Shown here in pieces: positions 3,804 through 46,752 of a stretch of DNA of 64,000 bases. Within the stretch, counting starts at the first letter, position 1. Every line of letters starts with the position of its first letter. The stretch is from IMG/VR virus record IMGVR_UViG_3300002134_000110; one strand, 5' to 3'. The notes beneath the pieces are model-generated. The model had not been told where the DNA came from. It saw only the letters and a list, made by a program, of their open reading frames with translations, and ran no database searches. A program made the translations under genes and the position numbers. Origin of the DNA: a virus.

Positions 3804-4463
3804 ATGTCGCACGAAAGATTGCTTGATTATTTAAATCAAAGACGGATAATTTATAGGAGATTGCCTATATCAGACAAGCCAACAGCATGTTTTGATTGGG
3901 GTTACTTTTATGAAGATGGTACTCATGAGTGTTATGATTTATTTAGAAGCAAAGCTAAAATAACAAGTTATAGATCTTTAAAATGGCACTTATTAGTTTT
4001 ATGGTATTTAAATCCTCAGCTTGATCAAAAAGCTTTTAATAATCTAGCGGAGTATATTTGTAATAAAAAAAATGGATTTATAACATTTGAACCGCCTGAT
4101 GATTCAGTAAGCAAAATTGTTTACGATGTTAGCATAAAAGATTTAGAACAACCCCCTAAAAATAAAACACGTAAAATAATATTTAAATACCAATGTAAAT
4201 TATCATTATCAGAAAAGCTTAGCATTGTAGGCCAAATGATAGGTAAAACAAAAAGAGTAACAGAAGCAGATATATACGACATGATGCTTTATATAAATGA
4301 TAATGGCGAAAAAATAACAATAACAAAAATAGCTAAGCTATTAAGCTGTGCAACTAGAACCATACACCGAAACATAACCAAAAAACTTAAAGATGAAAAA
4401 GAACTATTAAATCAACAAAATGAAAAAGTACAACATTCGCAATTATGTGAGGTACAAGGATGA
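3804..4463 (+). CDS. hypothetical protein with a C-terminal HTH-like segment
   Basis: 219-aa ATG ORF after a 75-nt gap. The C-terminal ITITKIAKLLSCATRTIHRNITKKL looks like a helix-turn-helix. It overlaps the sigma factor gene by 44 nt. Confidence 0.55.
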   Translation: MSHERLLDYLNQRRIIYRRLPISDKPTACFDWGYFYEDGTHECYDLFRSKAKITSYRSLKWHLLVLWYLNPQLDQKAFNNLAEYICNKKNGFITFEPPDDSVSKIVYDVSIKDLEQPPKNKTRKIIFKYQCKLSLSEKLSIVGQMIGKTKRVTEADIYDMMLYINDNGEKITITKIAKLLSCATRTIHRNITKKLKDEKELLNQQNEKVQHSQLCEVQG

Positions 4464-5181
4464 TGTTAAAATATCAATTAATTTAATTGAGTTTAAAGCA
4501 TTTCAAGACTACACGCGAGACGAACTAATTGTTACTTTCCTACCATTGGTAGAGAACATAGCGCGGAAGTTTTCAACTTCAGATCAAGCATCAGGTGTTA
4601 TGGATATTACGGATTTAATTCAAGACGGAAGTTTAGGATTAATAAAAGCAGTAGACAAAATAATATGGGATACCGTAACGGGATCTAATGATCCAGAAAA
4701 AACATTAAAGTCTTTCCTATCAAAGAGAATAAAAGGGGCAATACGAAGGGCTATTGATATTAACAGAGGTGATATACGAATACCAGAACACAAACTAACC
4801 GAAATAAGAAAAGATAACGGCAAAGATAAGACTATGGTAGCAATGTTTTTTAATTCCATTTTTCTTAGCATTGACGAGCAAGTAAATGAAGATGATGACA
4901 ATATAATGCATCAAATACCGGATCAGACTGAGCCATACAATATAACTTTATTGAATTTATATTTAACAAGCCTATTAAAAAAGCATTTAGACGAAAAAGA
5001 ATTTGAAGTATTAAGATTAAGCTATGGGCTTAATTGTGATAAACACTCCGCAAATAAAATAGCAGAGATATTAAATATAGAAGGATCAAGCGCTTATGTT
5101 AGGATTTCAGAGATTAAAAAACAAGCAGTGCAAAAATTAATAGAAAATGTAGATTCTTCGCAAGTAATTGACTATCTTTAA
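4420..5181 (+). CDS. RNA polymerase sigma factor (sigma-70 family)
   Basis: Region 2 signature DLIQDGSLGLIKAVDKI. Region 4 signature FEVLRLSYGL followed by ANKIAEILNIEGSSAYVRISEIKKQAVQKL. Confidence 0.8.
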   Translation: MKKYNIRNYVRYKDDVKISINLIEFKAFQDYTRDELIVTFLPLVENIARKFSTSDQASGVMDITDLIQDGSLGLIKAVDKIIWDTVTGSNDPEKTLKSFLSKRIKGAIRRAIDINRGDIRIPEHKLTEIRKDNGKDKTMVAMFFNSIFLSIDEQVNEDDDNIMHQIPDQTEPYNITLLNLYLTSLLKKHLDEKEFEVLRLSYGLNCDKHSANKIAEILNIEGSSAYVRISEIKKQAVQKLIENVDSSQVIDYL

Positions 5182-6884: not shown

Positions 6885-8606
6885 ATGCAAACAACGGAGA
6901 TAAACGGATTTCAAATAGAACATTTTAATCAATACGATCTACCAACCGGTAAGCCTGAAGGCACTTGCCCGGTTTGTTCCGAACATAGAAAACCTGAAAA
7001 CAAGAAAGCTAAATGTGCTTCTTATGATTGGGAAAGAGGGCTAGGCACTTGCCATCATTGCTCTAATACATTTCAACTTCACACATACCAGCGCAAAGGA
7101 AACGCTGAAAAGATCTACATCAAGCCAGAACCAATACAACTTAAAGAAGTAAGCACTAAGGTTCAAGAATGGTTTCAAAGTAGAGGAATATCAAACAATA
7201 CATTAAAAGCTCTTAAAGTTACAGAAGGCAAAGAATTTATGCCTCAAACCGGTAAAGAAGAAAATGTTATTCATTTTAATTACTTTATGGGTGATGACCT
7301 TATAAATGTAAAATACAGAGATGGACGCAAAAACTTTAAGCTTTATAAAGGTGCTGAAAAAGTTTTTTATAACATAAATGCAATAGTGGGTTATGAGTAT
7401 TGCGTGATTGTAGAAGGCGAAATGGATGCTCTTAGTTTGCATGAAGCTGGTATACCAAATGTTGTATCTGTACCAAATGGAGCTACTCTTGGAACAAACA
7501 ATTTAGATTATTTAGATAACTGTATAGATTACTTTACTGATAAAGAAAAAGTAATACTTGCATTAGACGGAGACGAGGCTGGTCAAGCCTTGCAGAACGA
7601 GTTTATTAGAAGACTCGGGGCTGAAGTTTGCTTTATAGCAACTTTTGATGACTGCAAAGATTCAAACGAATATTTATTAAAACATGGAAAAGAAAAATTA
7701 TCGCAGCGTATTACCTCAGCCAAGCCCGTACCTTTGGAACACGTCACCACTTTTAAGGACATTGAAGGGGAGGTTACTGATTTCGTTACAAATGGCTTTA
7801 AGCCCGGATTTCAGATTGGCTTATCTAACTTTGATGAAATCTTTTCAACTTACACTGGTCAATTTATTACTGTCACTGGTATACCTTCTTCCGGAAAAAG
7901 TGATTTCGTCGACCAAATGGTTGTTGGCTATAACGCTAAGTATGGATGGAAAACGGCATATGCTAGTCCTGAGAATGCGCCAACTTATCTTCACGCACAT
8001 AAGCTTATGCGAAAGGTATGGCAAGGCATGCCCACTAAAGAAGACATTGGTACGAGCAAATGGAATCAAGTAGCTAATCATATAAATGATAATTTCTTTT
8101 TTATTGACATGGAACGTTATACACTCGAGTCTGTGTTACGTAAAGGTGCTGAGCTAGTAAAGCGTAAAGGAATTAAATGTTTAGTTATAGACCCTTTTAA
8201 TAAAGTTAGAGACTATGAGGGAAACTTTGGAGACGTTAATGCATACACCTTAGAATATTTAACTAAAATTGAAATTTTTGCTAAAAAATATGATGTATTA
8301 GTTATTGTTGTTGCACACCCTACTAAAATGTATAAGGATGCCACTGGCAAAATCGAAGAACCCACAATGTACAGTATTAAAGGCGGGGGAGAATGGTATG
8401 ATGCCTCTTATCACGGGTTATTAGTCCATAGAGACTACGTAAACAAAACAGTAAAAGTTAAAGTTCTAAAAGTTAAATTTCAGAATTTAGGGGAAAACGG
8501 AGCTGAAGCCTATTTTAAGTGGGAATATAAATCTGGATGCTTTTTACCTATTAGAGATCCTAACCAATCTATTGCAAGTGCGGATAAAATGCCTTGGGAC
8601 TTATAA
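6885..8606 (+). CDS. bifunctional DNA primase-helicase (T7 gp4-like)
   Basis: Zn finger CPVC...CHHC. TOPRIM motifs VIVEGEMDALSL and LALDGDEAG. Walker A GIPSSGKS, Walker B CLVIDPF and VVAHPTK. Confidence 0.85.
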   Translation: MQTTEINGFQIEHFNQYDLPTGKPEGTCPVCSEHRKPENKKAKCASYDWERGLGTCHHCSNTFQLHTYQRKGNAEKIYIKPEPIQLKEVSTKVQEWFQSRGISNNTLKALKVTEGKEFMPQTGKEENVIHFNYFMGDDLINVKYRDGRKNFKLYKGAEKVFYNINAIVGYEYCVIVEGEMDALSLHEAGIPNVVSVPNGATLGTNNLDYLDNCIDYFTDKEKVILALDGDEAGQALQNEFIRRLGAEVCFIATFDDCKDSNEYLLKHGKEKLSQRITSAKPVPLEHVTTFKDIEGEVTDFVTNGFKPGFQIGLSNFDEIFSTYTGQFITVTGIPSSGKSDFVDQMVVGYNAKYGWKTAYASPENAPTYLHAHKLMRKVWQGMPTKEDIGTSKWNQVANHINDNFFFIDMERYTLESVLRKGAELVKRKGIKCLVIDPFNKVRDYEGNFGDVNAYTLEYLTKIEIFAKKYDVLVIVVAHPTKMYKDATGKIEEPTMYSIKGGGEWYDASYHGLLVHRDYVNKTVKVKVLKVKFQNLGENGAEAYFKWEYKSGCFLPIRDPNQSIASADKMPWDL

Positions 8607-8887
8607 TGGGTAGTGGATATAAAAATAAAAAGAAAAACAATTTACCAGATAGTTATATTGTAAATAAGCAAGAAGCGGCCGCATATACTTGGTGCCTTAA
8701 AAACAATATAAGAATAAGTTTACAAGCAATAGATTACGTTCAAAATCCTGACAAATGGAAAATAGCCATAAGTATAGGTGAGAACTATAAAGCGTTTCAT
8801 TTGTCACCTAGTGTATACACAAAAGACAATGTATGGCAAGAGTATTATAAAGCATGTTTATATTATTACAACAAACACAATAAATAA
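8606..8887 (+). CDS. hypothetical protein (93 aa)
   Basis: The track start at 8594 is TTG. The ATG at 8606 overlaps the primase stop (TAATG). Confidence 0.55.
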   Translation: MGSGYKNKKKNNLPDSYIVNKQEAAAYTWCLKNNIRISLQAIDYVQNPDKWKIAISIGENYKAFHLSPSVYTKDNVWQEYYKACLYYYNKHNK

Positions 8888-9702
8888 TGGATATACAAGA
8901 AGATTACCAGTTATTAATGTCTCAAGCTTTATATAAAGGCAAAAAGAAAACTGATCGTACAGGAACAGGTACATTAAGTCTGTTTGGTAAAACAATCGAG
9001 CATGATATGAGTAAAGGTTTTCCTTTGCTTACTACAAAAAAAGTTTGGTTTAATGCTGCTTTAACGGAAATACTTTGGATTTTACAAGGCAGAACCGATA
9101 TAGGATACTTGCACGAGCATAAAGTTCATTATTGGGATGCTGATTATGAAAGATCTGGTAGAACAGATATGACTTTAGGTCCTGTGTATGGCAAGCAATG
9201 GCGTGATTTTGGCGGCGTAGACCAGCTTAAAAACCTTTTAATTGAGATCAAGTCTAATCCAGATTCAAGACGTCTTATAATCAGCGCATGGAACCCAATT
9301 GAAATGAATGATATGGTTTTACCACCTTGTCATTACGGTTTTCAAGTATATATTAATGATGGGGTTATAGATTTAATGTGGCAACAGCGTTCTGTAGATA
9401 TATTTTTAGGTTTACCTTACGATATTGCAATGTATGGGTTATTATTAGAGTTTTTAGCAAAAGGCAATAAATTAAAAGCAGGTAAACTAATTGGACAACT
9501 TGGTGATTGCCATTTATATAGTAATCATTTAGGGCAAGCTTCTGAGCAATTAGAAAGATATGCTTATGAGTTACCAACAATTAATGTTGAACACGGTTTG
9601 TATTTTAATGAAGGGACTATCTTCATGCCAGTACATAATTCCGTATCTTTAAATAACTATAGATCTCACCCCCCAATTTTAGCGCCGTTATCGGTAGGGT
9701 AA
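8887..9702 (+). CDS. thyA: ThyA-family pyrimidine-C5 transferase (thymidylate synthase homologue) with Asp at the Asn177-equivalent position
   Basis: DRTGTGT, EILWILQG, PVYGKQWR, LPPCH, QQRSVDIFLGLPYDIAMY and GDCHLYSNH align with E. coli ThyA. GLPFN is replaced by GLPYD. Confidence 0.85.
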   Translation: MDIQEDYQLLMSQALYKGKKKTDRTGTGTLSLFGKTIEHDMSKGFPLLTTKKVWFNAALTEILWILQGRTDIGYLHEHKVHYWDADYERSGRTDMTLGPVYGKQWRDFGGVDQLKNLLIEIKSNPDSRRLIISAWNPIEMNDMVLPPCHYGFQVYINDGVIDLMWQQRSVDIFLGLPYDIAMYGLLLEFLAKGNKLKAGKLIGQLGDCHLYSNHLGQASEQLERYAYELPTINVEHGLYFNEGTIFMPVHNSVSLNNYRSHPPILAPLSVG

Positions 9703-9713
9703 AACAAATTATT

Positions 9714-10475
9714 ATGTATCATATATATCATATACCTGGTAAAAAAATCGGCGTTACACGTAATCTTGAATTAAGGGTTACTCAAGCTCAAGGGTACAAT
9801 TCTGATGAATATGAAGTCATTGAATCTTCCGATGATATTCATTATGTATCTAAAAAAGAAATTGCTTTACAGAAGTCTTATGGATATAAGGTTGATAGGC
9901 AATTATACAAAGACTTAATAAACAAAAAATCAAATCAAATGAAAATTAATGTAACCGAACAGACTACAACTTTCCCTGTTCAAAAAGACAAACTTAAAGG
10001 CCATTTAATGGAAACCATTGGTATGAAATGGGAAACATCATTAGGTGAATTTGAATTGACATTAGAATCAATTAGGTGGATTGAACAAAACGCTGTTGTT
10101 TCTATGTATGACACTCAAAGATCCTTTATATATAACAAAGCATTTCACGAGGCCTTCACTGAAAACTTTGAAGAACACAAGCCTACCGTATATGATGATA
10201 TACGTCTTTGGGCAGCCGCTAAAGGCATCTACACTAAAGGGGACAGCAAAACACAATACATCAAGCTTCTGGAAGAAGTAGGGGAATTAGCAAAAGCTAT
10301 ACTTAATAACGACAAGCCTGAAATAATAGACGCTATTGGCGACTGTGTGGTTGTTCTTACAAACTTAGCTAAGCTTGAAGATCTTAAAATTGAAGATTGT
10401 ATACAATCAGCTTATAATGTAATTCAAAACAGAAAAGGCAAAATGATTAATGGAACATTTGTTAAAGAATCTTAA
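9714..10475 (+). CDS. MazG-like all-alpha NTP pyrophosphohydrolase with an unassigned ~150-aa N-terminal domain
   Basis: The C-terminal block KLLEEVGELAKAI ... IDAIGDCVVVLTNLA fits the MazG EExxE/D metal-binding helices. The N-terminal YHIYHIPGKKIGVTRNLELRV is only vaguely GIY-YIG-like. Confidence 0.6.
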   Translation: MYHIYHIPGKKIGVTRNLELRVTQAQGYNSDEYEVIESSDDIHYVSKKEIALQKSYGYKVDRQLYKDLINKKSNQMKINVTEQTTTFPVQKDKLKGHLMETIGMKWETSLGEFELTLESIRWIEQNAVVSMYDTQRSFIYNKAFHEAFTENFEEHKPTVYDDIRLWAAAKGIYTKGDSKTQYIKLLEEVGELAKAILNNDKPEIIDAIGDCVVVLTNLAKLEDLKIEDCIQSAYNVIQNRKGKMINGTFVKES

Positions 10476-10476
10476 T

Positions 10477-10764
10477 ATGAATAAAAAAGAATTTACATTT
10501 CGTGATCCAGTTATTGAAAGCGTTGTGAATAAGTTTGTAGCACGATCTGACGTAGGCTTTAAAAAATATGGTGTAACATTAGATGAAGACCCTGGCAATC
10601 TTAATGTATGGATGACACACCTTCAAGAAGAACTTATGGATGCTGTTAACTATATAGAAAAGCTAAAGCGTGTTACTACTGAAGTTCTACAAGATAAACT
10701 TGTACAGAAGTACGAAGCCTCCCATGATGGGCATATGTTAGACAGTGATGACATATGGCAATAA
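10477..10764 (+). CDS. small MazG-related / dNTP-diphosphohydrolase-N-like protein (candidate)
   Basis: RSDVGFKKYGVTLDEDPGNLNVWMTHLQEELMDAVNYIEKL fits the R..G..KYG...W..H..EE..DA.NY pattern seen in phage NTP-PPase-like proteins. The ATG at 10477 follows the previous stop. Confidence 0.4.
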   Translation: MNKKEFTFRDPVIESVVNKFVARSDVGFKKYGVTLDEDPGNLNVWMTHLQEELMDAVNYIEKLKRVTTEVLQDKLVQKYEASHDGHMLDSDDIWQ

Positions 10765-11207
10765 AACGGCGTACTAGAAAAAAAGGTCCAGTAAGAGCAA
10801 ACAAAGTGTCATATGATGGCATTGACTTTGCTTCAGGTCTTGAAAAATATATGTATATGGCTTTAAAGCAAGCTAAAATACGCGTAAAATACGAAGGTGA
10901 AACATTTGTTTTACTTAATGGTTTTCATTTTGAAAACGAAGTTTATGAAAGACAATCTAATGGAAAAGGAGGCTATATAAATAGAGGTTGTAAAAGAATA
11001 TTGCCAATAAAATATACTCCAGACTTTATAGGTGAAGACTTTATAATAGAAACAAAGGGCCGAGCTAATGAATCATTCCCAATGCGTTGGAAGCTATTTA
11101 AACAGTTAGTAGTTAATCAATTTCCAAATGTAACCTTATATAAACCACAAAATCAACAAGAATGCAACGAGACAATACGCTTGATCCTATCAAAGCAAAA
11201 AAAATAG
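10755..11207 (+). CDS. DUF1064-like PD-(D/E)XK nuclease (Holliday-junction-resolvase-like)
   Basis: DGIDFASGLEKYMYMALK ... YTPDFIGEDFIIETKG matches the DUF1064-type layout by eye. Confidence 0.5.
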   Translation: MAIKRRTRKKGPVRANKVSYDGIDFASGLEKYMYMALKQAKIRVKYEGETFVLLNGFHFENEVYERQSNGKGGYINRGCKRILPIKYTPDFIGEDFIIETKGRANESFPMRWKLFKQLVVNQFPNVTLYKPQNQQECNETIRLILSKQKK

Positions 11208-11612: not shown

Positions 11613-11766
11613 CGATAAATCATCCGCTATTGAATGGTGGGTAGACGATATGCTTGAAGAAATAAAAGCAATAAAGAATAAGGGGGTTACTAAAAAAGAC
11701 CTCCTTTTATATCTAGACTCGTGGGAGTCAACATTAAAAACAATTAAAAATATAACAAAAGACTAA
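11605..11766 (+). CDS. hypothetical small protein (53 aa)
   Basis: Hand-translated MNNDKSSAIEWWVDDMLEEIKAIKNKGV...; its stop overlaps the nrdB ATG (TAATG). Confidence 0.4.
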   Translation: MNNDKSSAIEWWVDDMLEEIKAIKNKGVTKKDLLLYLDSWESTLKTIKNITKD

Positions 11767-12737
11767 TGGGATTATTTACACCAAGAATTGAATACAAACC
11801 TTTTGAATACCCAATATACTTCACTGAAGGCTGGCTAAAGCAAGCACAAGCGTTTTGGTTGCATACTGAAATAAGTATGTCTGGAGACGTTAAAGATTGG
11901 AACGAAAAATTAAACTCTAAAGAAAAAAGTTTAGTAGGTAATATATTATTAGGCTTTGCACAAACAGAATGTGCTGTGTCTGATTACTGGACGCAGAAAG
12001 TAGTGGGCTGGTTTCCTAAGCATGAAATACAACAAATGGCAATGATGTTTGGATCACAAGAAACAATACACGCTGTTGCTTATTCTTATTTAAATGAAAC
12101 ACTTGGACTGGAGGATTTTAAAGCTTTTTTGCAAGATGAAGCTACTATGGAAAGATTTAATGCACTCGTTTCTTATGAAGGCGCTGATACTCGTGGTATT
12201 GCTAATTCTTTGGCCGTATTTTCTGCTTTTGCTGAGGGTGTTTCTCTTTACTCTGCTTTTGCTGTACTTTATAGTTTTCAACTTCGAAATCTTTTAAAAG
12301 GCGTAGGACAACAAATGAAATGGAGTGTGCGTGATGAATCTTTACATTCTAAAATGGGTTGCCAGTTATTTAGGCACATGTGCGAAGAAGACCCAAAATT
12401 ATTAAATGATTGTAAAAAAGAAATACTTGATGCAGCTGAACACATGCTCAACGCAGAAGAAAACTATATTGACAAAATGTTCGAGCTGGGAGACATCGAA
12501 AACCTTAAAGCTTACGACCTCAAACAATTTATTAGAAAACGACTCAATGAAAAAATTGCTGAACTCGGCTACAGGGACAGTAGGGAGCACTTTGAATTTA
12601 ACGAAAAAGCAGCAAGCAATCTTGACTGGTTCTATCATCTTACCGGGGGGGTTACTCATACTGATTTTTTTGCTATTAGGCCGACTGACTATAGTAAAGC
12701 GGGTGAAGGCGAAGATTTTGAAGATATGTGGGATTAA
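11766..12737 (+). CDS. nrdB: ribonucleotide reductase small (beta) subunit, class I
   Basis: Di-iron ExxH motifs SQETIHAVAYS and RDESLHS, plus AFAEGVSLYSAFA. Confidence 0.9.
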   Translation: MGLFTPRIEYKPFEYPIYFTEGWLKQAQAFWLHTEISMSGDVKDWNEKLNSKEKSLVGNILLGFAQTECAVSDYWTQKVVGWFPKHEIQQMAMMFGSQETIHAVAYSYLNETLGLEDFKAFLQDEATMERFNALVSYEGADTRGIANSLAVFSAFAEGVSLYSAFAVLYSFQLRNLLKGVGQQMKWSVRDESLHSKMGCQLFRHMCEEDPKLLNDCKKEILDAAEHMLNAEENYIDKMFELGDIENLKAYDLKQFIRKRLNEKIAELGYRDSREHFEFNEKAASNLDWFYHLTGGVTHTDFFAIRPTDYSKAGEGEDFEDMWD

Positions 12738-12751
12738 TTAAATTAAATAAT

Positions 12752-12982
12752 ATGAAAGGACAAAAACAAAGTAGACAAGACCTATTAGAAAAAAGAGTAA
12801 AAGCATTAATAAACGTAGTACAACAATTGTTAAATGAAAACTCATACCTTAAAGATTTATCAGTTGGTACATTGGAAGCTGTTAAACTTATGCCAGGATA
12901 TGAAGAAGCAATACAACAATTGACTGAAAAACTTAAAGAAGAAAAAGAAACTAAATTAGATCTTGGGGATGGGCTGGAATAA
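12752..12982 (+). CDS. hypothetical coiled-coil protein (76 aa) between the RNR subunit genes
   Basis: The track start at 12728 is GTG inside the nrdB end; the first ATG is at 12752. Confidence 0.5.
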   Translation: MKGQKQSRQDLLEKRVKALINVVQQLLNENSYLKDLSVGTLEAVKLMPGYEEAIQQLTEKLKEEKETKLDLGDGLE

Positions 12983-14741
12983 TGATTGGATAAAAGGAAT
13001 TGACTACCCTGAGTGGGGGAATACAGAAGTATATAAGAAAACTATTATTGGTGGCTACCTAATACAAGATGAATCGCCAAGAAATGCATATATGAGGGTT
13101 GCATCAACTGTTGCGAAGCGTTTATACAAGCCAGAATTGACCGAAAAGTTTTTCCAGCATATATGGAAGGGGTGGCTTAATTTAGCTTCACCAGTGCTCT
13201 CTAATACTGGTACAGACAGAGGTTTACCTATATCATGCTTTGGTATTGATGTTGGTGATAGTATTGCTGATATTGGGCAGAAAAATTTAGAAATGATGCT
13301 TTTGGCTAAGCACGGAGGAGGAGTTGGTATTGGAATTAATATGATCAGAGCCGCAGGGGCTAGGATTACAGGTAATGGTACCTCGGATGGGGTTGTTCCT
13401 TTCTGTAAAATATATGATTCAACTATACTAGCAACGTCTCAAGGCTCTGTTAGAAGGGGTGCGGCAAGTGTAAATATTAGCATTGACCACAAAGACTTTG
13501 AAGATTGGCTGGAGATTAGGGAACCTAAAGGAGATGTCAATAGACAATCGCTTAATTTGCATCAATGCGCCGTTGTTGGCGATAAGTTTATGCGAAAGCT
13601 TGAAGAAGGGGATCCTGAGTCAAGAAAAAAGTGGAGCAAGTTATTGCAGAAGCGCAAAGCAACTGGAGAACCTTATATTCTCTTTAAAGGAAATACAAAC
13701 AAAGCTAACCCAGAAGCATATAAAAAAAATGGACTAAAAGTGCATATGACTAATATCTGCAGCGAAATAGCTTTGCACACAGATGAGAACCATAGTTTTG
13801 TATGTTGCTTGTCATCATTAAATCTTACAAAATATGAAGAGTGGAAAGATACTAACCTTATTTATGACGCAATTTGGTTCCTTGATGGAGTACTTGAAGA
13901 GTTTATTCAAAAGGCTAAAGGCCTTAAAGGATTTGAAAACTCAGTTCGTTCTGCGGAAAAAGGAAGAGCGCTTGGTCTTGGAGTCCTTGGGTGGCACACT
14001 TACCTCCAGCAAAATGGAATACCTTTCGAAGGGCTTCAAGCTCAGTTTGAGACTAGGAGAATATTTAGCCAGATTAAAATCGAAAGTGAAAGGGCGTCGA
14101 GAGCACTTGCCGAGGTATATGGAGAACCTCTTTGGTGTCGTGATACTGGATATAGGAATACTCACCTTAGGGCTATTGCACCTACTGTATCAAATAGTAA
14201 ACTATCTGGTAATGTGTCTCCAGGTATTGAGCCTTGGGCTGCTAATGTTTTTACGGAGCAATCTGCAAAAGGTACGTTTATTAGAAAAAATAAAGAACTT
14301 ATTAAAGTTTTAAAGAAAGCAGGAATTGATACAGAGGAAACCTGGAACAAAATACTTGAAGATGGAGGAAGTATTCAAGATATAAATAGTTTAGATGATT
14401 GGGGATATATAAATAAAAAATTAGTATATTTACCAGATACATCAGAGCAAGACATGCTAAATGGTTATGATGCCGTTAAAGATGTGTTTAAAACGTTTAA
14501 AGAAATAAACCAGTTAGAGTTAGTTAATCAAGCTGGTATACGTCAACAATATATAGACCAATCGGTCAGCTTAAATCTTGCCTTCCCAAGCATTGCTACC
14601 CCAAAGTGGATTAATCAAGTTCACTTTGAAGCATGGAAGAAAGGAGTAAAAACATTGTACTACACAAGAACAGAATCTGTGTTAAGGGGAGATATTGCCG
14701 CTAAAGCAATGGACCCTGATTGCTTATCCTGCGACGGGTAG
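12969..14741 (+). CDS. nrdA: ribonucleotide reductase large (alpha) subunit, class I, short form without an ATP-cone
   Basis: LSNTG, SCFG, NICSEI, CCLSSLNL, APTVSNS and YYTR, with a C-terminal CLSCDG cysteine pair. The track start at 12963 is TTG; the first ATG is at 12969. Confidence 0.9.
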   Translation: MGWNNDWIKGIDYPEWGNTEVYKKTIIGGYLIQDESPRNAYMRVASTVAKRLYKPELTEKFFQHIWKGWLNLASPVLSNTGTDRGLPISCFGIDVGDSIADIGQKNLEMMLLAKHGGGVGIGINMIRAAGARITGNGTSDGVVPFCKIYDSTILATSQGSVRRGAASVNISIDHKDFEDWLEIREPKGDVNRQSLNLHQCAVVGDKFMRKLEEGDPESRKKWSKLLQKRKATGEPYILFKGNTNKANPEAYKKNGLKVHMTNICSEIALHTDENHSFVCCLSSLNLTKYEEWKDTNLIYDAIWFLDGVLEEFIQKAKGLKGFENSVRSAEKGRALGLGVLGWHTYLQQNGIPFEGLQAQFETRRIFSQIKIESERASRALAEVYGEPLWCRDTGYRNTHLRAIAPTVSNSKLSGNVSPGIEPWAANVFTEQSAKGTFIRKNKELIKVLKKAGIDTEETWNKILEDGGSIQDINSLDDWGYINKKLVYLPDTSEQDMLNGYDAVKDVFKTFKEINQLELVNQAGIRQQYIDQSVSLNLAFPSIATPKWINQVHFEAWKKGVKTLYYTRTESVLRGDIAAKAMDPDCLSCDG

Positions 14742-15249: not shown

Positions 15250-18200
15250 TTAAAAATCTAAATTTTTACTAGAAGATCTTCTTCTTCTTTTTTTAGCATT
15301 CCTAGCTTTTTCAATTTCTGGATCTTTTAATCCAATATCCCAAGAATTATAACCTAAAAATAAAGCCGTACGCTGCCATGCCTCCGCGTCTTGTTGAGTA
15401 ATAGCTTTTATATTTGAAACTTTAGTAAGAACTCTATCTAATGGAAAATTAAATGCGGCCGAAACTAAATTACCACCTATTTGATAATATGGATGATTAG
15501 GATTGTCATAGCCAATTTTGTCAAGTATTTTTTTATTAAACTTGTAACTTTCCATTGCTCCATAAATTTTCCTGGCTTTAATTCCTACAGCTGGAGATAT
15601 GTTTAATAGCTCTATAATAACTTTTCCGTTTTGCCCAGTAAATCCTTTATCATTTTCACGCATCCATGCAATCGTTGCATTTTTTAAAGTAGCTAAAGCT
15701 GCTCCGCCAATTCCAGATCCACGTAATGCGCTATCTAACATTGTATTTATAGCTCTTTCTGTTTTTTTATCTATTTTTAAATCTTCATCTTCGTCATCTC
15801 CAAATACACCTGCAAATAAAGCATTTTGTAAAAATGCAAATATAGTGTTTTGTATTGCGCCATAATAAACAAGCCTAGCCACATTAGCTTTAAAACTGCC
15901 TCTTCTATTTATTAAATCCAACATAGCTTTCTTTTGTATGCGTGTCATCTGCATAGTTGTGTTTTGGAATGCTAAGAATATTCTTCCAATAACACTAACC
16001 TGCTGGTTAGATAATAAATCCTGTCTTGAAGATTGTTGAGTGCGCTCTGCTATTTCTTGAAAATCTAAAAAAGCCTCTTCTTTGGCTTTTGCTTCAGACA
16101 TTCCCTCTTTAATATATTTTTGTTCTCTATTATATAAAAATGGCGCGCCTCCAGTTGCTACTGCAATATTATCTCCATATTTAGTAAGAGAAAAACCTTT
16201 TTCTAAAATATAAGATAATAAAGCTTTATTTTTATTTTTGCTACCCTCTAATCTAGCAACAAGCTCAGACTCATTTATATCTGTTTTTAAGCCTTGTCTA
16301 CGCTCTTTCATCCAATCAGAGTTAAATATATCAACCCAATATTTTGCGTATGTTGCGGGGCTTCCTGCAATAAATTTACCTTGAGCAAAAATATTATTAT
16401 CTTCCCAGTTTGTAAAGTTAACAATAGAAAGTTGTTGTAGCAATGCCGATCTAGTGTTAAAAAACATGGTAACCCCAACAGAACCTCTTACCCAATCTAA
16501 ATATGCGTTAGCTAATTTGTTATTACCTATTTGTCTTGCGCGCCCGTTTTTAATTCTATAAAGCATATCTTCTAATGCTGATCTTAAATCAGGACCATAA
16601 GCTGCCTCAATTTTGTTTATATTTTCTTTAGAAAATATTATATCAGCATTTGTAATAAATTTTTCAAATATTCTTGCTCTACCAATTTTACTTAATATTT
16701 CTTGCAAGTCCATTTCAATGGTACTAGCTGTCCAATCTTCTTCTGGTTTTAGCCAACTTTCTTTTTTATTTGGAACATTAATAAGATCTTCAGCAAAAGT
16801 AAGTAAAGACATATCAGAAACAACTGATTTTATTAAAGCATTTTTGTCTGTTTGACTTATTCCGGGAACATCGTACCCTAGTTTTGACCACATATAAACT
16901 CTAACCGCGTCATCATTGCTGTAGTATTTATAATCACTTTCTGCTCTTAATTTTTTTGTTATTCCTTTATTTGCTTTAATTAAATTATGATAACTTTGTT
17001 TTATTAATTGTCTTTCAGCATTTAAATTAAAGTTAGCTCTTGCTAATGGTTTAAGGAGTTTTTCATCCATAAATTTCATGTCAGCATCTCCTTGCTTGCC
17101 TGTACCATAAAAATTATATAATAAACCAGCAAAATCATCAGCTCCGGGCGGTATAAATATTTTTAATTTGCCTTTACCTTCTCCTATTTTTTTAGCGGTT
17201 GCATTAGATATTAATTCATTTTCACTAATACCTTTTTTGCGCTCAAGCATTTTATTAAATTCAATGCTCATTCCTAAAGATGCTTTTGAAGTTTCTTTAT
17301 TATTATAACTTTCTTTAGTTATAATTTCTCCATTAGTCATTCCAGGTAATCCTATTATTTGTAAATTAATATTTGACGGTAAATTTTCAAAATATCTTTG
17401 TAATACATCTAATGGTGTTGCATTAAAAAAATCAAAGCCTTTGTTCATTGAATTTTTAACATTCATTTCAGAATTTAAAGTAGTATCAAAGCTTTTTTGC
17501 GTTAAAGATGCAATCCTTAATTTTTTAATATTTTTAAATTGTTCATCGGATATTCTGCCTATAACATTTCCTATAGATAAATTAGCAAATAACAAAGCGG
17601 GTAGCATGTGCTCATAAACATATTTAATTCCTTTGCTATTTAAATTTTTAGTTATATAACTTAAATCATAAGAATTTTTTAATGGCGTGGACATATGCTT
17701 TAGCTGCCCAGCATATATTAAACCAACTGTAGTTAGATCTATTTTTAAATTAGGATCTTTTGAATTGTATAATTTTTTTACAGTAGCATGCAAATCATCG
17801 AACAAAACTTTAGACTTATTTACTTCTAATGTTCTTCCTTCTACGTTAATTTGTTTTGGGTCTGCACCAATTAAATCATCTGATCCAGGAAATGGTTTTA
17901 ATGGTGTAAATTTATAAATATTTTTATTTTTATAATATATTGATGTACCTATAATCTCTTTTGTTTTAGAATCTAAAACATTTTCAGCTTTAAAATTTTT
18001 TGTTAATATACCATCAAACGCATCTAAAAGACCTTGATTATTTCCAAACAAAGTTTTGTTAACACCACTAGCCCAAGGTTTATTAAGGGTTTTAAGCATA
18101 GAAATCATTTGCGTTTCTTTCTGGCTTTTAGTGGCATTAGGTGTTTTAAAAGAATATAAATTCCACCACTTTTGTATAAATGCTTTGCCTCGATCTTTGT

Positions 18201-21200
18201 TTTCTTGTTTATTAGGGCTAAGTCCAAAATATGGCAATCCAACCACCGCGGAAACAACTTGATCTGGATCAAAATCTTTTTTATCAATTTCATCAATAAA
18301 ATCTAAAAATTCATTTGTTGATTTGTATTTTTGGTTTATTAATTTTCTTCCAATATCAATATAATTATCTTTAATTGCTCCAACAAGATTTAATATGTTA
18401 TTTTTTTCAATGTCCGAAAACTTATTACTAAAAATAATTTTATAAGCTTCTTCAAAATTTCCATCATTTAAAGCTGTCCTTAAAACATTTTTAAATCCAT
18501 TTAAAAATAAAGCTTGTTTTTCTGGAGATAAATCTTTAAGAAATTCTATATCCGCACCTAAAGATAGTTTGGCTATACCTCTTGGCAATGTTTTTTCCAT
18601 TCCGTCTATTACTTCCTCAGCTTTTATTTCAGTATAAAGTTCTGATATATTTGCTATAGATTCAGTAAGAATTCCTCCTTCACTTAAATCTTTTAGTATA
18701 ACTTCAAAACCTTTTTCAGAAGCAATTTGCCGAGCTAAAGAAAAAATAGCATTAGTTTTTATTTTATTACGTAACGCTCCATCTTGAAAATGATAATCTA
18801 CATATTCATTTTCTTTTACCGCTTCTTTAATTTTTGGATTTCTTTTAATAAACTCAGGCCCTGAAGTCATACCCCTCCCGGCTGCATTATCTCTATCTAT
18901 TTTAAGCTTATTGCCTTTTTTATCAATCCAATCATATTTATATTCTGAAATTTTAGTAGGGGCAACCCATTCTCCGTTAACTCTTTTGAGTATGCCTTTT
19001 CTAAAAAATGGATGTTTAGATAAAAATGTAGTTGTAAAATTATTTAAAAAAGCTTCCCTATTATCTATTAAAAATTGCTCTAATCCTTTTTCTTTTATAA
19101 ATTTAATAATATCTTTTTCAGCAAAATCAGCAATATCTTTTTTTAAGTCAGCTACAAAAGGGGTTATAGTTCTATTTTTAGTTGTTTCAATATTAAATTT
19201 CTTTATATTTAAAACAATTGCTTTGTTTATGTTTTTTACAAAACTTTCATCTAACTCTTTTGTAAATTTAATTTTTTCTGATAGTAATGCTTTTTTCTGA
19301 ACGGGCTTTTCTTTAGCGATTTCTTCTGAAGCTAACATTGAATCTTCGGCGGTTTCATCGGACATTAAGTCTTTTTGTAAGGTGGCATCAGATGTAAAAC
19401 CTAAACCTCCCTTTTCTTGAGTAGATTCTACACCAATTTCTTTAGCTAAAGAATTTGCACGGGCATTCATAATAAATGACATGTACTGGTCTACGGTTTG
19501 CCCCTTGCCGGGTTTAAAATCAGCCATTTGCAGGGAAGCATTGGTTATAATTGCCCTTAAGTATTCTGTTTTTGTTACCCCCCTCAACGAGTCAGGGTTA
19601 ATTTTACTAAATAAACGCTGTGTAATTGATGTTGCTAGCTTTATCACTTGTGTGCCAAATATTGAGTCCTCAACTCTCCCCTTAACATCTTTGCCTTTAC
19701 TGTTATAAGTTAATGTTTCATTAACTAGTTTAGTTACATTGCCGTCGTATTTATCATATAGTTCTTGCAAGTTATTATATTGAGGTTTATTAGAATCATC
19801 TATTTGGTTTTGAGGTACATTATTTGCTAATGAAAGCTTTTTGTCTTGTAATTCTTCTTTGTAAAATTTAATTTTTTTACCTCTTTGAATAAAATTATTA
19901 AAAGAATTTAAATGCAAAATAACATCTTGCGCTCTTCCTACAATTTCACTTGCTCCGGCGTTAATGCCGAATGCTCCTAAAGCTTGTGATCTAATGCCGC
20001 TTATATAATTAGAAAATTGATAAGCTTTGTTTTCTAAATCGCTTTGTTTTATATAACCATTTTGTAAAAGCTCATAATAAAGATTTTGAAATTCTTCATT
20101 TAATTGTGTATCTGAAATTTTAGTGTCTTTATATTTTTGCATTCTTGCTAAAGCAAAGTCGTATACGCTTCCTTTAATTTCTTCATTTTCTTTTTTATTT
20201 TTTAAAATATTTTTTAATTCTTCAACTGCTTCGTTAAAACGTTTTTTGTCTTTAAAAATAAAGTTTTTAGAAGAAGTATATTCATGCAGTGTTTCATGTA
20301 AAGGGGTCATAGCTGCGGTGGCAGCATCAAATTCGATAGATTCCGCTTCGCTTATAGCCGCAGTTATAGCGGCAGAGTTTAATAATTTTGTTTTACCGTC
20401 GTCTGCAATTATACCATATGAGCTTTTTATCTTTCTTTTCCCTGTTTTAGGATCTATTTCAACAAACATTAAATCTTTGACTTCTGCGTCAATATCCTCA
20501 TCTGATTTTTCCCTAAAATAATCATTCTTTTTTAATTTAGCAAGTCCTTTATTAGAAAGCGCCGTTATATCAAAAGCCTCAAGTGCTATTAAATCAAAAT
20601 CATCCAACTCTAATTCAATTAAAGCATTTCCAGATGCTTGACTAAGTTTTTTATTAATTTGGTATTTTTGCCAAAGAAAAATAGATTCGGCAGATTTAAT
20701 TTCTTCTGGTACAGTTGCTTTTTCAACGGATTTTATAATTGCATTTTTTTTATTAGAAAGCCCCTGTAGTTGATCTTTTAAATTTTTTACACGTTTTCTC
20801 GTAGCTTCATCACCAATTTTAAAATTATCAGTAGAGGCTAATTGTGCTACTTCTCTATATATTTTATTTATTTTTGCATCTACATCAAATAATTCTTTTG
20901 CTTGTGACTCGCTAAAATTATCTAAGTTTGTGGCAATATATTGATTTAAAGTAGCTGCTTTTTTAAGAACATTCCCCATTTGTTCTTGAACATCTTTTTG
21001 ATTCTCTGGATTTAGAGATTCCTGAAGATTATAGTATTCTTTTAAATATTTTTTAAACAATACTTGATCCACTTTAGATTTTCCGGCATTAACTAAACTA
21101 TTGGTTAACGTCATTGAATTTATCCCGCCGCCAACTAACAAAGTTGAAAAAGTAGTACCAGCAAAAAATTCAGGCGTAAATCCGTCTAAAAGAGACACAT

Positions 21201-27681: not shown

Positions 27682-30600
27682 TTAAAAACAAACCCCCGCT
27701 ATTATATTTGAAGGCGCTCCGGTAGGCGTAGTGGTAGAACACTGGTCGAATTCTGTAGCCGTTTGAACCAAGTCCGAAGAACCGTCACAATTTGTCCATT
27801 GTATAGTTGACATTCCAGCGGGTGTTATTTTATAATTTTGACAAAACGAGCCAGTTACCTCTGCTTTGCAAAGATCCGCAGAGTTTATAATGCCTGTAAA
27901 TGTATGAGTAACAACTGAACTTTCTCCAGCAGCCTTAATAATAGTATTCACATTACCGTTTGGATCTGTAAATTCATACTTATGATTGCTACTTAAAATC
28001 CCTCCTCCGAATGTTTGTAGTGTTAAACTTACAGCATTTGATACTGGAATAGCACCACTGCTAGTTACTATAGTGTCTTGATAAATTGTTTGTGTATTGC
28101 TATCTGACCAAATAGCCAACCAAGATGGTGAATAAACTAAAGAACTAGTTGTAACGCTTCTAGGGGCCATAGCCACAGCACCAAAAGTAACATTAAAAGC
28201 ACAAGTAGAAGGAGCCACCGCTCCGCCATCATCCGCTAAACTAACGTTTACAGCATATTCTTTGTTATTTGTATGCACGTTATTTGGGTTTGTAATAATA
28301 CCAGTATTGGGATCTATAGAAAATATTCCTTGGCTAGTTACATCTAAGCCATCTAATATTACACTTCCAATGCTCCATACTAGCCCTTGTATTCTATTTG
28401 CATACAAAGCATTTATGTTTAATCCATTTTCACCAAGCGCGGTTGCAACATAATAATTATTGCCCGCGTTGCCCCCATAAATTAAGTTTGATCCACATGG
28501 AAAACTATATGTAGGGCTAATATTACTAAAATTACCTAAGAAAGATAATTGAGTGGTTTCAGTACCTACAATGCAGTTTACATAAAACACAAAATTTATT
28601 AAAGCAGGATCACCTACTCCATAATAAAAGAAATCATTTGTTTTTATATCAAAAGTGCCTGTTCCGTTGTCAACTAAGCTAAATCTACTTGTTATATTTG
28701 TTGGATTACCAGATATAGAATTTTCTACTTTAGCGAGAGTAAACGCTGCTCCAGCAACCGGTTGTCCTTGGGCGTCTAAAATAGACGCTGCAGACACAAC
28801 AGTAGCCCCTATATTCATGCCTTCATTTTGAGAATATCCCGCATTTAAATCTATTGCCGCAGGAGCAGATGTTCCTTCTGCTATAAGAGCATTTAAATCA
28901 CTTATTAACCCAACAGAACTAGTTTCCCAATATATGTCTAAAAGAGATTCCACTGGGGAAGTTTCATAAACACCAAGTGTTAAATTAAAATTAGAATTTG
29001 TTACACCTATAGCTTTAGATGTATTTATCCTACCTATTAACGGATTTGTTTCACTTTGATAAAATTCAGGATAAACTAAGCTTGCCCCTTGGGAAACATT
29101 GTAATTAGTGTCGGCTACCGTAGATATAGAAACCACCGTGTCTGAATTAGTGCCAGGATAATATTGATTGTTTAATGCCACTGTAGGATTAACCCTTCCA
29201 AATAACTGAACACTACTTCTATACTGTCTTTGGTCTGGTCCAACTTCAGATAAATCTCTTGGTACTTTATTTATATTATCATTTATTAATACTATGTTAG
29301 CTATACTGTTTTGATCAATTGTGCCTATTGGATAACCATTTAATATTCCCGGCAGATATACATTATAATAATCTTGTTCCGTTTGTTTAACAACTATTTT
29401 ATATGAATACCAACCCAATGGGTTTGTTTCACTATATAACCCTGGTTCTCCTTGAGTATTTACGTCACTAATAATGCCGGGGCTATCAAATACAACTCTT
29501 AATGCATACCCGGGCCAATGAAGTATAGTAGACGGCGCTGATTTATAGTAAGGCACAAAAATTGTAGACCCCCCATAAGCTACTAGCCCAACGGTTTGCC
29601 CTAAACTTTCATCATCTTTGGAGGATAATATAACGGAGGATTGTCTGCCAAATTTATCACAAAGCACTATTCCAACTTGATAGTTCCTATTTTGTTTCAA
29701 AGTATGATTAGGATATTCTATTGAACTATATATTTTATTTGGTTCAGAAAAATTAAATTCTTTAGAGTAATATCCAACCCCATAATTTATGGATTCAGGA
29801 GGGGTATTTTTGTCTACAAAGTTACCATACATAACCCTGTTCCCAGCGACTTCTTGTGCTAAAGCTCTTACGGGTACCATATCATAAACCCTTGTTGTTT
29901 GGTCAGAGGGTAAAGTTTTATATGGCTTGCTAGATATATAAGTAAAGTTGTAAATGTTTTCTACTGTAAATGCCTTATTATAAGCAACAACACTGTTAAC
30001 AATGCTAATAGGAATAGACTCAACTGCTTTAATAATGGTTGAATCTGATTCTTTACAAAGTATTTCAATATCTGTTACATGCTGGGCAACACCCATATCC
30101 TCATAGGGCAGCTGTATATTTAAACCTATTTCTGTAACGTTATTTTCAAAAAATTGTACTACTGTACTTCTATAGGCTTCTTCTTGATCGCCGTCTAAAA
30201 AATAACCTTGTTGTTTAGGAATAAAACAAATTTGAGTAAATGGGGCTATTAAAGAATACTCCCCATCATCAAACTTATACCTATAGCTAAATCTTATAAG
30301 CCTGTCTTTTAAATAATTTGGGTCTCCTGCCCAATTAGATAAATAATCCGGGTTTTCAGGTGAAGGCGGTGCCGGAGGGTAACCGGGAAGGTATCGTTGA
30401 GAGGGGTTAACCATTGTAGAAACTAACGGTTGATTTTCAGCTAAATTAACTAACTTAATTGGATTAATTGGTAAAGGTTTTGCTACAGAGATAGTGTCTT
30501 CAGACATATAATACCCTGTTGAATTAGCTGCGGACTGTACGTTTATTTTTCTTGGTTGGTTTCTATTATCAGTCCAAAATAATAAATCCTCTAATAAGTT

Positions 30601-46048: not shown

Positions 46049-46495
46049 TTATCTATTTTTATCGTTATTAACGTTATTTATTGCAGTTTTTTTAACTATA
46101 TCCATGTAAGTTTTACCTTTCATTATTTTATTTCTTCTATGACTTGTAGGTATATCTTCTCCTCCCAACATAATACGATACATTCTACTTATTAGTTGTC
46201 TGCACTTAAATGAAACTTTATATATATGATATTTTTGCGTGGTATGGTTTCTTTTTCTCCAAACCGTAACCCATCCTTCTTTCAATAATCTGTTCCAGCG
46301 CGTGTTGTCCCAACTATAAGCATACGTACCGATTTTATAATCTTGTTTGGTAAAAAAATCCATACAATCAAAGTAGATCAGTAATTCTAAGTCTGCATCA
46401 GTTAAGTCATTGTTTCTACCAGCCCATTGTCTTATTATCCGATAATGTTTTAACAAGTTTAACTCCCTAAGGTCACCTGCTTCTAGCCTTTTCAT
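46049..46495 (-). CDS. hypothetical protein (148 aa)
   Basis: ATGA overlap with the GroES-like gene; basic, possibly DNA-binding, but no motif assigned. Confidence 0.55.
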   Translation of the reverse strand: MKRLEAGDLRELNLLKHYRIIRQWAGRNNDLTDADLELLIYFDCMDFFTKQDYKIGTYAYSWDNTRWNRLLKEGWVTVWRKRNHTTQKYHIYKVSFKCRQLISRMYRIMLGGEDIPTSHRRNKIMKGKTYMDIVKKTAINNVNNDKNR

Positions 46496-46752
46496 AGAAC
46501 AACGACTACATCCTGTAGTTTTATAATATGATAAACATTTTTTTTAATATCTATCTTGTGTCCAGCATGGCGATCATAATAAATTTTATCACCTTCTTTA
46601 ATACCAGCTGTATCATTACCAACAGAAATTACATCAGCTAATATATACCTAATATCATCTCTTTGGTTTTCAGCAAGAAGTAAACCACCTTTTGTGGTTG
46701 TCGTACCTTCTTTAACTTTTTGTATGATTAAATTACTACCTATTGCTTTCAT
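46492..46752 (-). CDS. groES: co-chaperonin GroES/Cpn10-like
   Basis: NLIIQKVKEGTTTTKGGLLLAE...ADVISVGND...IKEGDKIYYDRHAGHKIDIKKNVYHIIKLQDVVVVL follows the Cpn10 pattern; immediately downstream of GroEL. Confidence 0.65.
   Translation of the reverse strand: MKAIGSNLIIQKVKEGTTTTKGGLLLAENQRDDIRYILADVISVGNDTAGIKEGDKIYYDRHAGHKIDIKKNVYHIIKLQDVVVVL

Follow-up and report, generated by a model that had tools for sequence, protein, structure and literature searches.

The window analysed here is a stretch of 64,000 nucleotides (IMG/VR record IMGVR_UViG_3300002134_000110) that represents ~98% of the contig of an uncultured marine phage of ~65 kb. On its plus strand lies a homologue of the thymidylate synthase ThyA, which carries aspartate at the position that selects the pyrimidine and is directly followed by a gene encoding a MazG-type nucleoside triphosphate (NTP) pyrophosphohydrolase domain. 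An initial annotation of this locus had proposed that the ThyA homologue acts on deoxycytidine monophosphate (dCMP) and that, together with two MazG-like genes, it serves to modify the C5 position of cytosine in the phage DNA. The features of the locus, in which two small open reading frames (ORFs) bracket the ThyA-MazG pair, are:

8606..8887, plus strand: small conserved ORF of ~93 amino acids if read from its ATG (8606; the program-made ORF begins at TTG 8594), directly upstream of the ThyA homologue
8887..9702, plus strand: ThyA-family enzyme of 271 amino acids (PF00303, Asp at position 177), predicted dCMP C5-methyltransferase (5-methyl-dCMP synthase)
9319..9330, plus strand: codons for L145-P-P-C148, in which Leu is kept and precedes the catalytic Cys by three residues; hydroxymethylases carry Asp or Glu instead (PMC6400193, PMC13326640)
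9421..9423, plus strand: codon GAT for Asp179, the equivalent of the pyrimidine-selecting Asn177 of E. coli
9714..10475, plus strand: three-part protein of 253 amino acids with a MazG-type C-terminal domain, predicted deoxycytidine triphosphate (dCTP) or more generally dNTP pyrophosphatase
9714..9893, plus strand: GIY-YIG-like N-terminal module of this protein, residues 1-60 (sub-threshold matches)
Between the N-terminal module and the MazG domain, plus strand: middle alpha/beta region of the same protein
10182..10475, plus strand: MazG-type NTP pyrophosphohydrolase domain, residues ~157-253 (Pfam, PHROG, Foldseek)
10477..10764, plus strand: conserved helical protein of 95 amino acids, a cassette member by synteny (73/77 loci)

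The ThyA homologue and its clade

The ORF at 8887..9702 matched PF00303 over residues 6-270 of 271 (E=1.3e-83; 280.7 bits against a cut-off of 24.3) as well as phrog_160 (E=4.7e-95), and its best solved relatives in a HMMER search of the Protein Data Bank (PDB) were bacterial thymidylate synthases (E ~1e-65). With TIGR03284 it scored 272.8 bits, the cut-off being 108.35, while the scores for the NCBIfam equivalogs NF002497 (294.5 bits against 327), NF002496 and NF002499 were below their cut-offs. Pairwise global alignment with E. coli ThyA, for which a reference sequence residue-for-residue identical to PDB 1AOB was used, gave 44.8% identity over the full length. The two proteins share length and fold, and the catalytic and phosphate-binding residues are kept as follows (E. 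coli/phage): R21/R24, E58/E61, W80/W83, Y94/Y101, R126-R127/R128-R129, L143/L145, C146/C148, H147/H149, Q165/Q167, R166/R168, S167/S169, D169/D171, G173/G175, H207/H209 and Y209/Y211. The motifs quoted in the initial annotation (DRTGTGT, EILW, PVYGKQWR, PPCH, QQRSVD, GDCHLYSNH, GLPYDIAMY and YWDADY) were all present in the translation, and the conservation of the catalytic set that it had described by eye was confirmed for every residue it named. Tyr101 stands in the same Pro-Val-Tyr context (Pro99-Val100-Tyr101) as its E. coli counterpart, and the C-terminal tail APLSVG is present and can be aligned to E. coli residues 258-264. Relative to E. coli ThyA, four residues are inserted after position 84, five are deleted in the 100-104 loop, and the substitutions are N177 to D179, F176 to Y178, W83 to D86, A144 to P and C168 to V. 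Unless a phage residue is meant, positions below follow the E. coli numbering.

The replacement of Asn177 by Asp, likewise first read by eye, was upheld by three independent alignments: HMMER alignments to thymidylate synthases of known structure, in which 'lpyd' of the phage protein is paired with 'vpfn', a MAFFT alignment with 120 homologues, and the global pairwise alignment. These 120 closest proteins (62-100% identity, from marine metagenomes) all carry Asp177 as well as L143, H147, D169 and Y176, and R21, E58, W80, Y94, R126, R127, C146, R166, S167, D169, H207 and Y209 are present in 118-120 of 120. The same pattern of L143, H147, D169, Y176 and D177 was found in 80/80 related IMG/VR loci. 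The Asp codon in these 80 loci was GAT in 72 and GAC in eight, AAT or AAC being found in none; an Asn codon is one transition away from an Asp codon, and no reversion has occurred in the clade.

Cellular genes were surveyed by a scan of 185,579 species of bacteria and archaea, each represented by one genome, in which the best 80 loci were read. Asp was encoded by three of these (87%, 65% and 62% identity), all on contigs of 1-6 kb from metagenome-assembled genomes (MAGs), while the remaining 77/77 were cellular ThyA genes with Asn and at most 50% identity to the phage protein. A cellular nature of the Asp clade was rejected, since only these three short MAG contigs carry it among the 185,579 species genomes. 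Asp177 is a fixed trait of this clade, which is confined to phage contigs. When 1.84 billion cluster representatives were searched exhaustively, the best 150 matches comprised 139 sequences with Asn, ten with Asp and one with Ser at this position. In a neighbour-joining tree built without columns 176 and 177, which is rough and has no support values, the clade of the ThyA homologue was monophyletic and nested in the radiation of canonical ThyA, the remaining Asp variants were scattered among Asn sequences, and both the thymidylate synthase homologue of phage Xp12 and the hydroxymethylase gp42 of phage T4 fell outside this radiation. Because of this scatter and this placement we read the tree as pointing to several independent Asn-to-Asp switches, of which the present clade would represent one that is not descended from the Xp12 or T4 enzymes.

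The MazG-domain gene and the small flanking genes

The gene downstream of the ThyA homologue encodes a protein that is conserved along its whole length. It matched PF03819 (E=3e-8; 34.3 bits against a cut-off of 22), PF01503 (E=3.3e-5) and the 'MazG-like' families phrog_1992 and phrog_715, and its ExxE...ExxD motif is invariant (E188, E191, E203, D206 and D210). An AlphaFold2 model had a pLDDT (predicted local distance difference test) score of 82.6, and in Foldseek it matched the MazZ protein of cyanophage S-2L (7ODY), MazG proteins of Sulfolobus and Bacillus (with 1VMG and 5IE9 among the matched entries), human DCTPP1 (7MU5) and mouse RS21-C6 bound to 5-methyl-dCTP (2OIG), with template modelling (TM) scores of 0.6-0.75 relative to the targets 7ODY, 1VMG, 5IE9 and 7MU5. 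Matches in BFVD were annotated as NTP pyrophosphatases. In 77/77 related loci with enough sequence, this gene comes directly after the ThyA homologue, 13-421 nucleotides downstream. The substrate specificity of MazG proteins is not readable from sequence; the predicted activity of the domain, and the most likely one, is hydrolysis of dCTP to dCMP.

The first 60 residues of this protein form a conserved module (YHIPGKKIGVTRNL..R) with the order beta-beta-alpha-beta-alpha in the model. Its matches to T5orf172 (E=0.0046) and MUG113 (E=0.018), both of the GIY-YIG clan, were below the cut-offs of these families, and we treat the GIY-YIG-like identity as a lead and not a finding. If true, a nuclease-like domain and a dNTP pyrophosphatase in one protein would make an uncommon combination.

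The claim that two MazG-like genes follow the ThyA homologue held for 9714..10475 and was not confirmed for 10477..10764. The latter ORF has 2181 homologues with invariant residues that include R9, D10, R23, K30, Y31, G32, W45, H48, E51, E52 and D55. Among 44 members no Pfam match to MazG, PRA-PH or dUTPase_2 was obtained at E values up to 0.5, a PDB profile search returned nothing relevant, and hhalign gave a probability below 1% for a relationship with the MazG superfamily, although it also failed on a true pair of MazG and PRA-PH families. The structure model consisted of two helices of low confidence (pLDDT 62.6) without a Foldseek match. With negative results from Pfam, PDB profiles, hhalign, the model and Foldseek alike, membership in the MazG superfamily is not supported. 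At the other end of the cassette, the ORF at 8606..8887 had no Pfam or PHROG match; it was present in 63/80 IMG/VR loci, and its motifs NNIRIS, SPxVY and YYxK are kept in syntenic relatives.

Predicted substrate, product and pathway

In canonical thymidylate synthases specific for deoxyuridine monophosphate (dUMP), Asn177 forms hydrogen bonds with O4 and N3 of uracil. This residue, which defines the dUMP-specific synthase of deoxythymidine monophosphate (dTMP), is replaced by Asp in the ThyA homologue and in every member of its clade. The N177D exchange switches thymidylate synthase to dCMP in place of dUMP and yields 5-methyl-dCMP (PMC8670742, where the shift of preference to dCMP in E. coli N177D and L. 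casei N229D is also cited), and in the same study Asp177 was the residue that best told modified-cytosine viral contigs apart from unmodified contigs. N177D homologues are known to make C5-modified dCMP (PMC8670742; bioRxiv 10.1101/2024.12.05.627091; PMC13326640), and 5-methyldeoxycytidine (5mdC) was formed in vivo by the Xp12 enzyme and by 5/7 tested metagenomic N177D homologues (bioRxiv 10.1101/2024.12.05.627091). Judged by its residues, the ThyA homologue very probably uses dCMP. As far as substrate and C5 modification of cytosine against restriction are concerned, the initial annotation thus draws support from the Asp signature, from its strict conservation in a phage-only clade and from the published N177D work; modification of the virion DNA is something we infer.

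Whether the product would be 5-methyl- or 5-hydroxymethyl-dCMP had been left open and can now be narrowed. Hydroxymethylases are marked by Asp or Glu three residues before the catalytic Cys, by a Ser-x-Tyr motif and by loss of the C-terminal tail (PMC6400193), and D169N marks flavin-dependent 5-hydroxy-dCMP synthases (PMC13326640). A hydrophobic residue at position 143 goes with a methyl product, Asp or Glu with a hydroxymethyl product (PMC13326640). All three hydroxymethylase signatures are absent from the ThyA homologue, with Leu at 143 and Asp at 169 in 120/120 homologues and 80/80 loci. The set of residues for hydride transfer (phage L145, D171, Y101 and W83 as well as the tail APLSVG) is present, except that the Trp at E. 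coli position 83 is replaced. Because the hydroxymethylase and 5-hydroxy signatures are absent, 5-methyl-dCMP is the predicted product; provided that dCMP is the substrate, a methyl and not a hydroxymethyl product is likely. If both predictions hold, substantial amounts of 5-methylcytosine (5mC) in the virion DNA are reasonably probable.

These elements would combine as follows. With Asp in place of the uracil-selecting Asn, the ThyA homologue would bind dCMP instead of dUMP and, by transfer first of the methylene group and then of a hydride from the folate, convert dCMP and methylene-tetrahydrofolate to 5-methyl-dCMP and dihydrofolate, products that are expected because the whole thymidylate synthase machinery is kept. 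The MazG-type enzyme would hydrolyse dCTP to dCMP, feeding the methylase and lowering the pool of unmodified dCTP as gp56 does in T4. Phosphorylation of 5-methyl-dCMP to the triphosphate would fall to kinases of the host or to a phage protein that has escaped recognition, and the host replicase would insert 5-methyl-dCTP, so that 5mC would replace some or all cytosine and many restriction enzymes would be blocked. The most likely interpretation is an Xp12-like pre-replicative 5mC pathway in which a near-canonical ThyA of independent derivation (N177D, F176Y) is combined with a MazG-type enzyme. As an explanation of the whole cassette, dCMP methylation together with dCTP removal leading to 5mC in the phage DNA has, in our estimate, somewhat better than an even chance of being correct.

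Among known systems, the nearest are Xp12 and Pamexvirus/Bosavirus relatives, e.g. AXL1 and PaMx74. The Xp12 enzyme (QNN97214) and the ThyA homologue are alike in having Asp177 preceded by Tyr (GLPYD), an intact D169 and a C-terminal tail; in both phages the ThyA gene adjoins a gene for an all-alpha NTP pyrophosphohydrolase, and both encode a ribonucleotide reductase (RNR). Xp12 has been shown to make 5-methyl-dCMP that leads to 5mC DNA, and the product predicted here matches. The two enzymes are, however, only 27% identical, and the Xp12 enzyme is an outgroup to the canonical ThyA radiation in which the present clade is nested; it aligns with Pro at 147 and Asn at 143, where the clade has His and Leu. 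In Xp12 the ThyA homologue is flanked by a PRA-PH protein of 257 amino acids (E=6.6e-15), followed by a dCMP deaminase and a dihydrofolate reductase (DHFR), an order shared by AXL1 (PMC9206674). A dCMP-family deaminase and a DHFR belong to the Xp12 cluster, and Xp12 has a DNA polymerase of its own (PMC9206674), whereas none of these was found for the present phage, and the linked 5mC-selective deaminase and DHFR that accompany Xp12/AXL1-type systems as accessory features were found neither in the window nor in the flanks of 87 loci. The pyrophosphatase partners also differ in Pfam family and architecture, being PRA-PH with a second domain in Xp12 and a GIY-YIG-like module, middle region and MazG domain here. 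The Xp12 gene in question (locus L008, MT664984, 46207..46980, minus strand) is annotated 'hydrolase (HAD superfamily)', yet its product is an all-alpha pyrophosphohydrolase of the PRA-PH type (E=6.6e-15) that carries a second domain at its C-terminus; an HhH-GPD glycosylase-like domain (E=5e-7) is encoded by the adjacent upstream gene (46973..47455, minus strand).

T4 likewise combines a cytosine-specific ThyA homologue, gp42, with an all-alpha pyrophosphatase converting dCTP to dCMP, the dCTPase/dUTPase gp56, an arrangement that is predicted for the present phage. Both statements of the initial annotation about T4 proved sound: gp42 aligns with Asp in the specificity column, and gp56, described there as an all-alpha NTP pyrophosphatase, matches dUTPase_2 (E=2e-5) and PRA-PH (E=0.019). 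That the residue is Asp179 in both gp42 and the phage protein is a coincidence of numbering. In contrast to the ThyA homologue, which has Leu145, gp42 has Asp145, a Ser94-x-Tyr96 motif and no C-terminal tail, and it releases tetrahydrofolate and not dihydrofolate (PMC6400193). T4 also encodes a deoxynucleoside monophosphate (dNMP) kinase, glucosyltransferases and its own replisome. A further parallel is provided by the metagenomic N177D homologues of MetaGPA, which lie on viral contigs associated with modified cytosine, some of them from coastal seawater, and combine Asp177 with PRA-PH/MazG-type domains; co-occurrence of thymidylate synthase and PRA-PH was specific to modified contigs in that study (PMC8670742). 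The tested MetaGPA enzymes, five of which make 5mdC, were chosen for an adjoining deaminase; none was found near the cassette in the present clade.

Additional pathway components were sought among all ORFs of the window with Pfam and PHROGs. Nothing convincing was obtained for a dNMP kinase, deaminase, DHFR, glycosyltransferase, DNA methyltransferase, TET/JBP enzyme or carbamoyltransferase, and neither a second thymidylate synthase nor a DNA polymerase nor sugar-nucleotide genes were found. A Walker-A scan of the window detected the helicase and large structural ORFs only. The initial annotation had seen no dedicated 5-hydroxymethyl-dCMP kinase or glycosyltransferase, in agreement with these scans. 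The flanks of 87 related loci contributed nothing of relevance beyond one gene, present in six IMG/VR loci (e.g. L119, 4937..5512), for a protein of 191 amino acids with an HxD...H motif and a weak match to DUF6445 (E=2e-4), possibly a 2-oxoglutarate-Fe(II) oxygenase. With no kinase or polymerase found, the path of 5-methyl-dCMP into DNA must depend on enzymes of the host or on phage proteins that escaped recognition, and this constitutes the main gap in the model.

Restriction-site counts were compared with those expected from a maximal-order Markov model. GATATC (EcoRV-type) was observed 0 times in the window versus 16.1 expected and, among the related loci L090-L169, 0 versus 11.6 times in four close relatives and 129 versus 214 times in distant ones. 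The window was also depleted in GGTACC (6 versus 19.1), GAATTC (6 versus 13), CATG (95 versus 158) and GGCC (49 versus 78). This depletion suggests ongoing selection by Type II restriction systems of the host. Full and long-standing replacement of cytosine by a protective base, as in T4-type phages, should relax the avoidance of C-containing sites.

Several observations weigh against the proposed 5mC pathway. The avoided C-containing sites include some that 5mC protects in Xp12 DNA, and the pattern is mixed because KpnI (GGTACC) cuts fully 5mC-substituted Xp12 DNA but NlaIII (CATG) does not (PMC7653180 supplement); site avoidance therefore counts weakly against complete and long-standing substitution. 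Neither the window nor the sequence within 5 kb of the cassette in 87 related loci yielded a dNMP kinase, 5mC deaminase or DHFR, and in the published in vivo assays the T4 gp1 kinase was co-expressed so that 5mdC would enter the DNA. Phages whose DNA is ordinary often carry MazG-like genes as well, with matches in 1007 phage records. The low identity to the Xp12 enzyme (27%) belongs here as well, the dCMP and 5mC activity of the clade being predicted from its sequences. In the MAFFT alignment of the 120 homologues Trp83 is replaced by Asp or Asn throughout the clade. This residue has been linked to solvent exclusion in the T4 hydroxymethylase paper (PMC6400193), so the assignment of the product is not airtight. 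Since the proven Xp12 methylase aligns with Asn and not Leu at 143, the rule for Leu at this position describes no more than a correlation.

Four other readings of the cassette were weighed against 5mC formation. In one of them 5-methyl-dCMP would be an intermediate on the way to thymidylate: its conversion by a dCMP or dCTP deaminase of the host would give dTMP or deoxythymidine triphosphate (dTTP), shifting the pools from dC to dT and leaving little or no 5mC in virions. Xp12-type phages do make dTTP by deaminating 5-methyl-dCTP (bioRxiv 10.1101/2024.12.05.627091), the present phage is AT-rich (65% A+T) and has no other thymidylate synthase, and restriction-site avoidance persists. The phages known for this route carry a deaminase of their own, however, and neither the window nor the surroundings of the cassette in the 87 loci revealed one; the host already makes dTMP, and the route would depend on a candidate activity among its enzymes. 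We consider it unlikely. An ordinary dTMP synthase that tolerates Asp177, with the cassette boosting dTTP supply alongside the RNR, would fit the thymidylate synthase scores obtained with all libraries (TIGR03284, 272.8 bits versus 108) and the position, beside NrdAB, of a classic nucleotide-supply module with the sole thymidylate synthase of an AT-rich phage. What speaks against such an enzyme is that the preference shifts to dCMP with N177D in the E. coli and N229D in the L. casei enzyme (cited in PMC8670742), that Asn is present in 77/77 cellular ThyA genes while the phage-only clade never reverts despite the distance of one transition, and that stricter NCBIfam equivalog cut-offs are missed, e.g. 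NF002497 (294.5 versus 327 bits). Its chance appears slim.

A dCMP hydroxymethylase giving 5-hydroxymethylcytosine in the phage DNA, as in T4, shares with gp42 the Asp at the specificity position and the loss of Trp83 (Val85 in gp42; PMC6400193). Yet the three signatures of such enzymes are absent, with Leu before Cys, Pro-Val-Tyr and the tail in their place (PMC6400193), the tree places the protein far nearer canonical ThyA than gp42, and no glycosyltransferase or 5-hydroxymethyl-dCMP kinase was found in the window, which makes this product distinctly improbable. A flavin-dependent 5-hydroxy-dCMP synthase is barely credible. An N177D ThyA homologue is a trait common to that family (PMC13326640), but D169N is absent (Asp in 120/120 homologues and 80/80 loci), position 143 is Leu and not Glu, and no glycosyltransferase or sugar-nucleotide genes were found in the window. 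This candidate (RB69 gp48 or DLP3 gp80 type) was rejected on D169.

The proposed 5mC pathway can also be extended to a bolder scheme, in which a widespread group of uncultured marine Flavobacteriia phages of ~60 kb would replace cytosine by 5mC via a minimal cassette that is independent of the Xp12 and T4 lineages, consists of a near-canonical ThyA changed by N177D and F176Y and the GIY-YIG-like/MazG fusion protein, and does without a phage deaminase, DHFR, dNMP kinase or DNA polymerase. The fusion protein would then couple dCTP removal with nicking of unmodified, C-containing host DNA, like EndoII plus gp56 in one polypeptide, and either of the two conserved small proteins at the flanks would supply the missing step or a control. 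In its entirety this scheme is doubtful.

Phage lineage, host and implications

The proteins of the window are 100% identical to those of a 65.5 kb Tara Oceans scaffold (TARA_R110000868_G_scaffold533_1), and the lineage comprises hundreds of contigs across Tara, JGI, ENA and IMG/VR. No close phage was found in INPHARED, the only megablast match being a 60-bp stretch of ThyA, and tblastn against 4014 phage records gave identities of at most 44%. The primase-helicase is nearest to those of phages infecting Cellulophaga, Tenacibaculum, Riemerella and Flavobacterium; Cellulophaga phage phi10:1 has a homologous region without a ThyA gene. Fragments of the phage group are present in Flavobacteriales and Bacteroidetes MAG bins. 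Because of these primase-helicase relatives and MAG-binned fragments, the host is probably a marine member of the Flavobacteriia.

The G+C content of the window is ~35%. Genes for replication and nucleotide metabolism occupy the plus strand from 1 to 14.7 kb, while lysis and structural genes are encoded on the minus strand. Downstream of the cassette the same string of genes continues with:

10755..11207, plus strand: DUF1064/Holliday-junction-resolvase-like gene (PF06356, E=1.8e-7; phrog_190)
11766..12737, plus strand: RNR small subunit, class I (PF00268, E=3.6e-55, Pfam)
12963..14741, plus strand: RNR large subunit, class I (phrog_84, E=2.7e-152)

The RNR pair (11766..14741) can supply deoxynucleoside diphosphates, including dCDP. 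Near the cassette in L150 (7899..9761) and three other loci, an ORF of 620 amino acids resembles a class II RNR by eye. Replication genes of the window include Erf, a DUF3799 exonuclease and the primase-helicase, and a sigma-factor-like gene is located at 4420..5181. DNA polymerase, terminase, portal and major capsid families were not detected in the window by Pfam at E<=1e-3. As no DNA polymerase was recognised, the phage probably relies on the host replicase.

Among the minus-strand genes, a chaperonin pair spans 46492..48292 and consists of a Cpn60/GroEL-like gene (46736..48292; PF00118, E=1.7e-60) directly followed by a Cpn10/GroES-like gene (46492..46752; PF00166, E=6.6e-13). A crAss-virus 'muzzle' domain (PF25731, E=1.4e-12) lies at the N-terminus of a protein of 1109 amino acids (27682..31011). 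The ORF of 2719 amino acids at 15250..23409 has no recognised domain, and an equivalent giant ORF of 2395-2877 amino acids is kept in relatives.

As a principle, the combination of an N177D ThyA homologue with an all-alpha pyrophosphatase is not new, being on record for Xp12-type phages and in metaviromes; the pairing is routinely used to predict cytosine modification. What is distinctive in the present clade lies in its independent origin, minimal gene set, unusual MazG fusion and ecological abundance. If the proposed 5mC pathway is true, the ThyA homologue would be a second, independently evolved natural dCMP methylase on a near-canonical ThyA scaffold, of use in enzyme engineering and for 5mC-DNA reagents, and a full pre-replicative cytosine modification would work with host kinases and the host replicase. 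It would further mean that an abundant uncultured lineage of ocean phages has 5mC-substituted genomes, and that the sequencing and quantification of marine viromes would be biased by modification-sensitive library steps.

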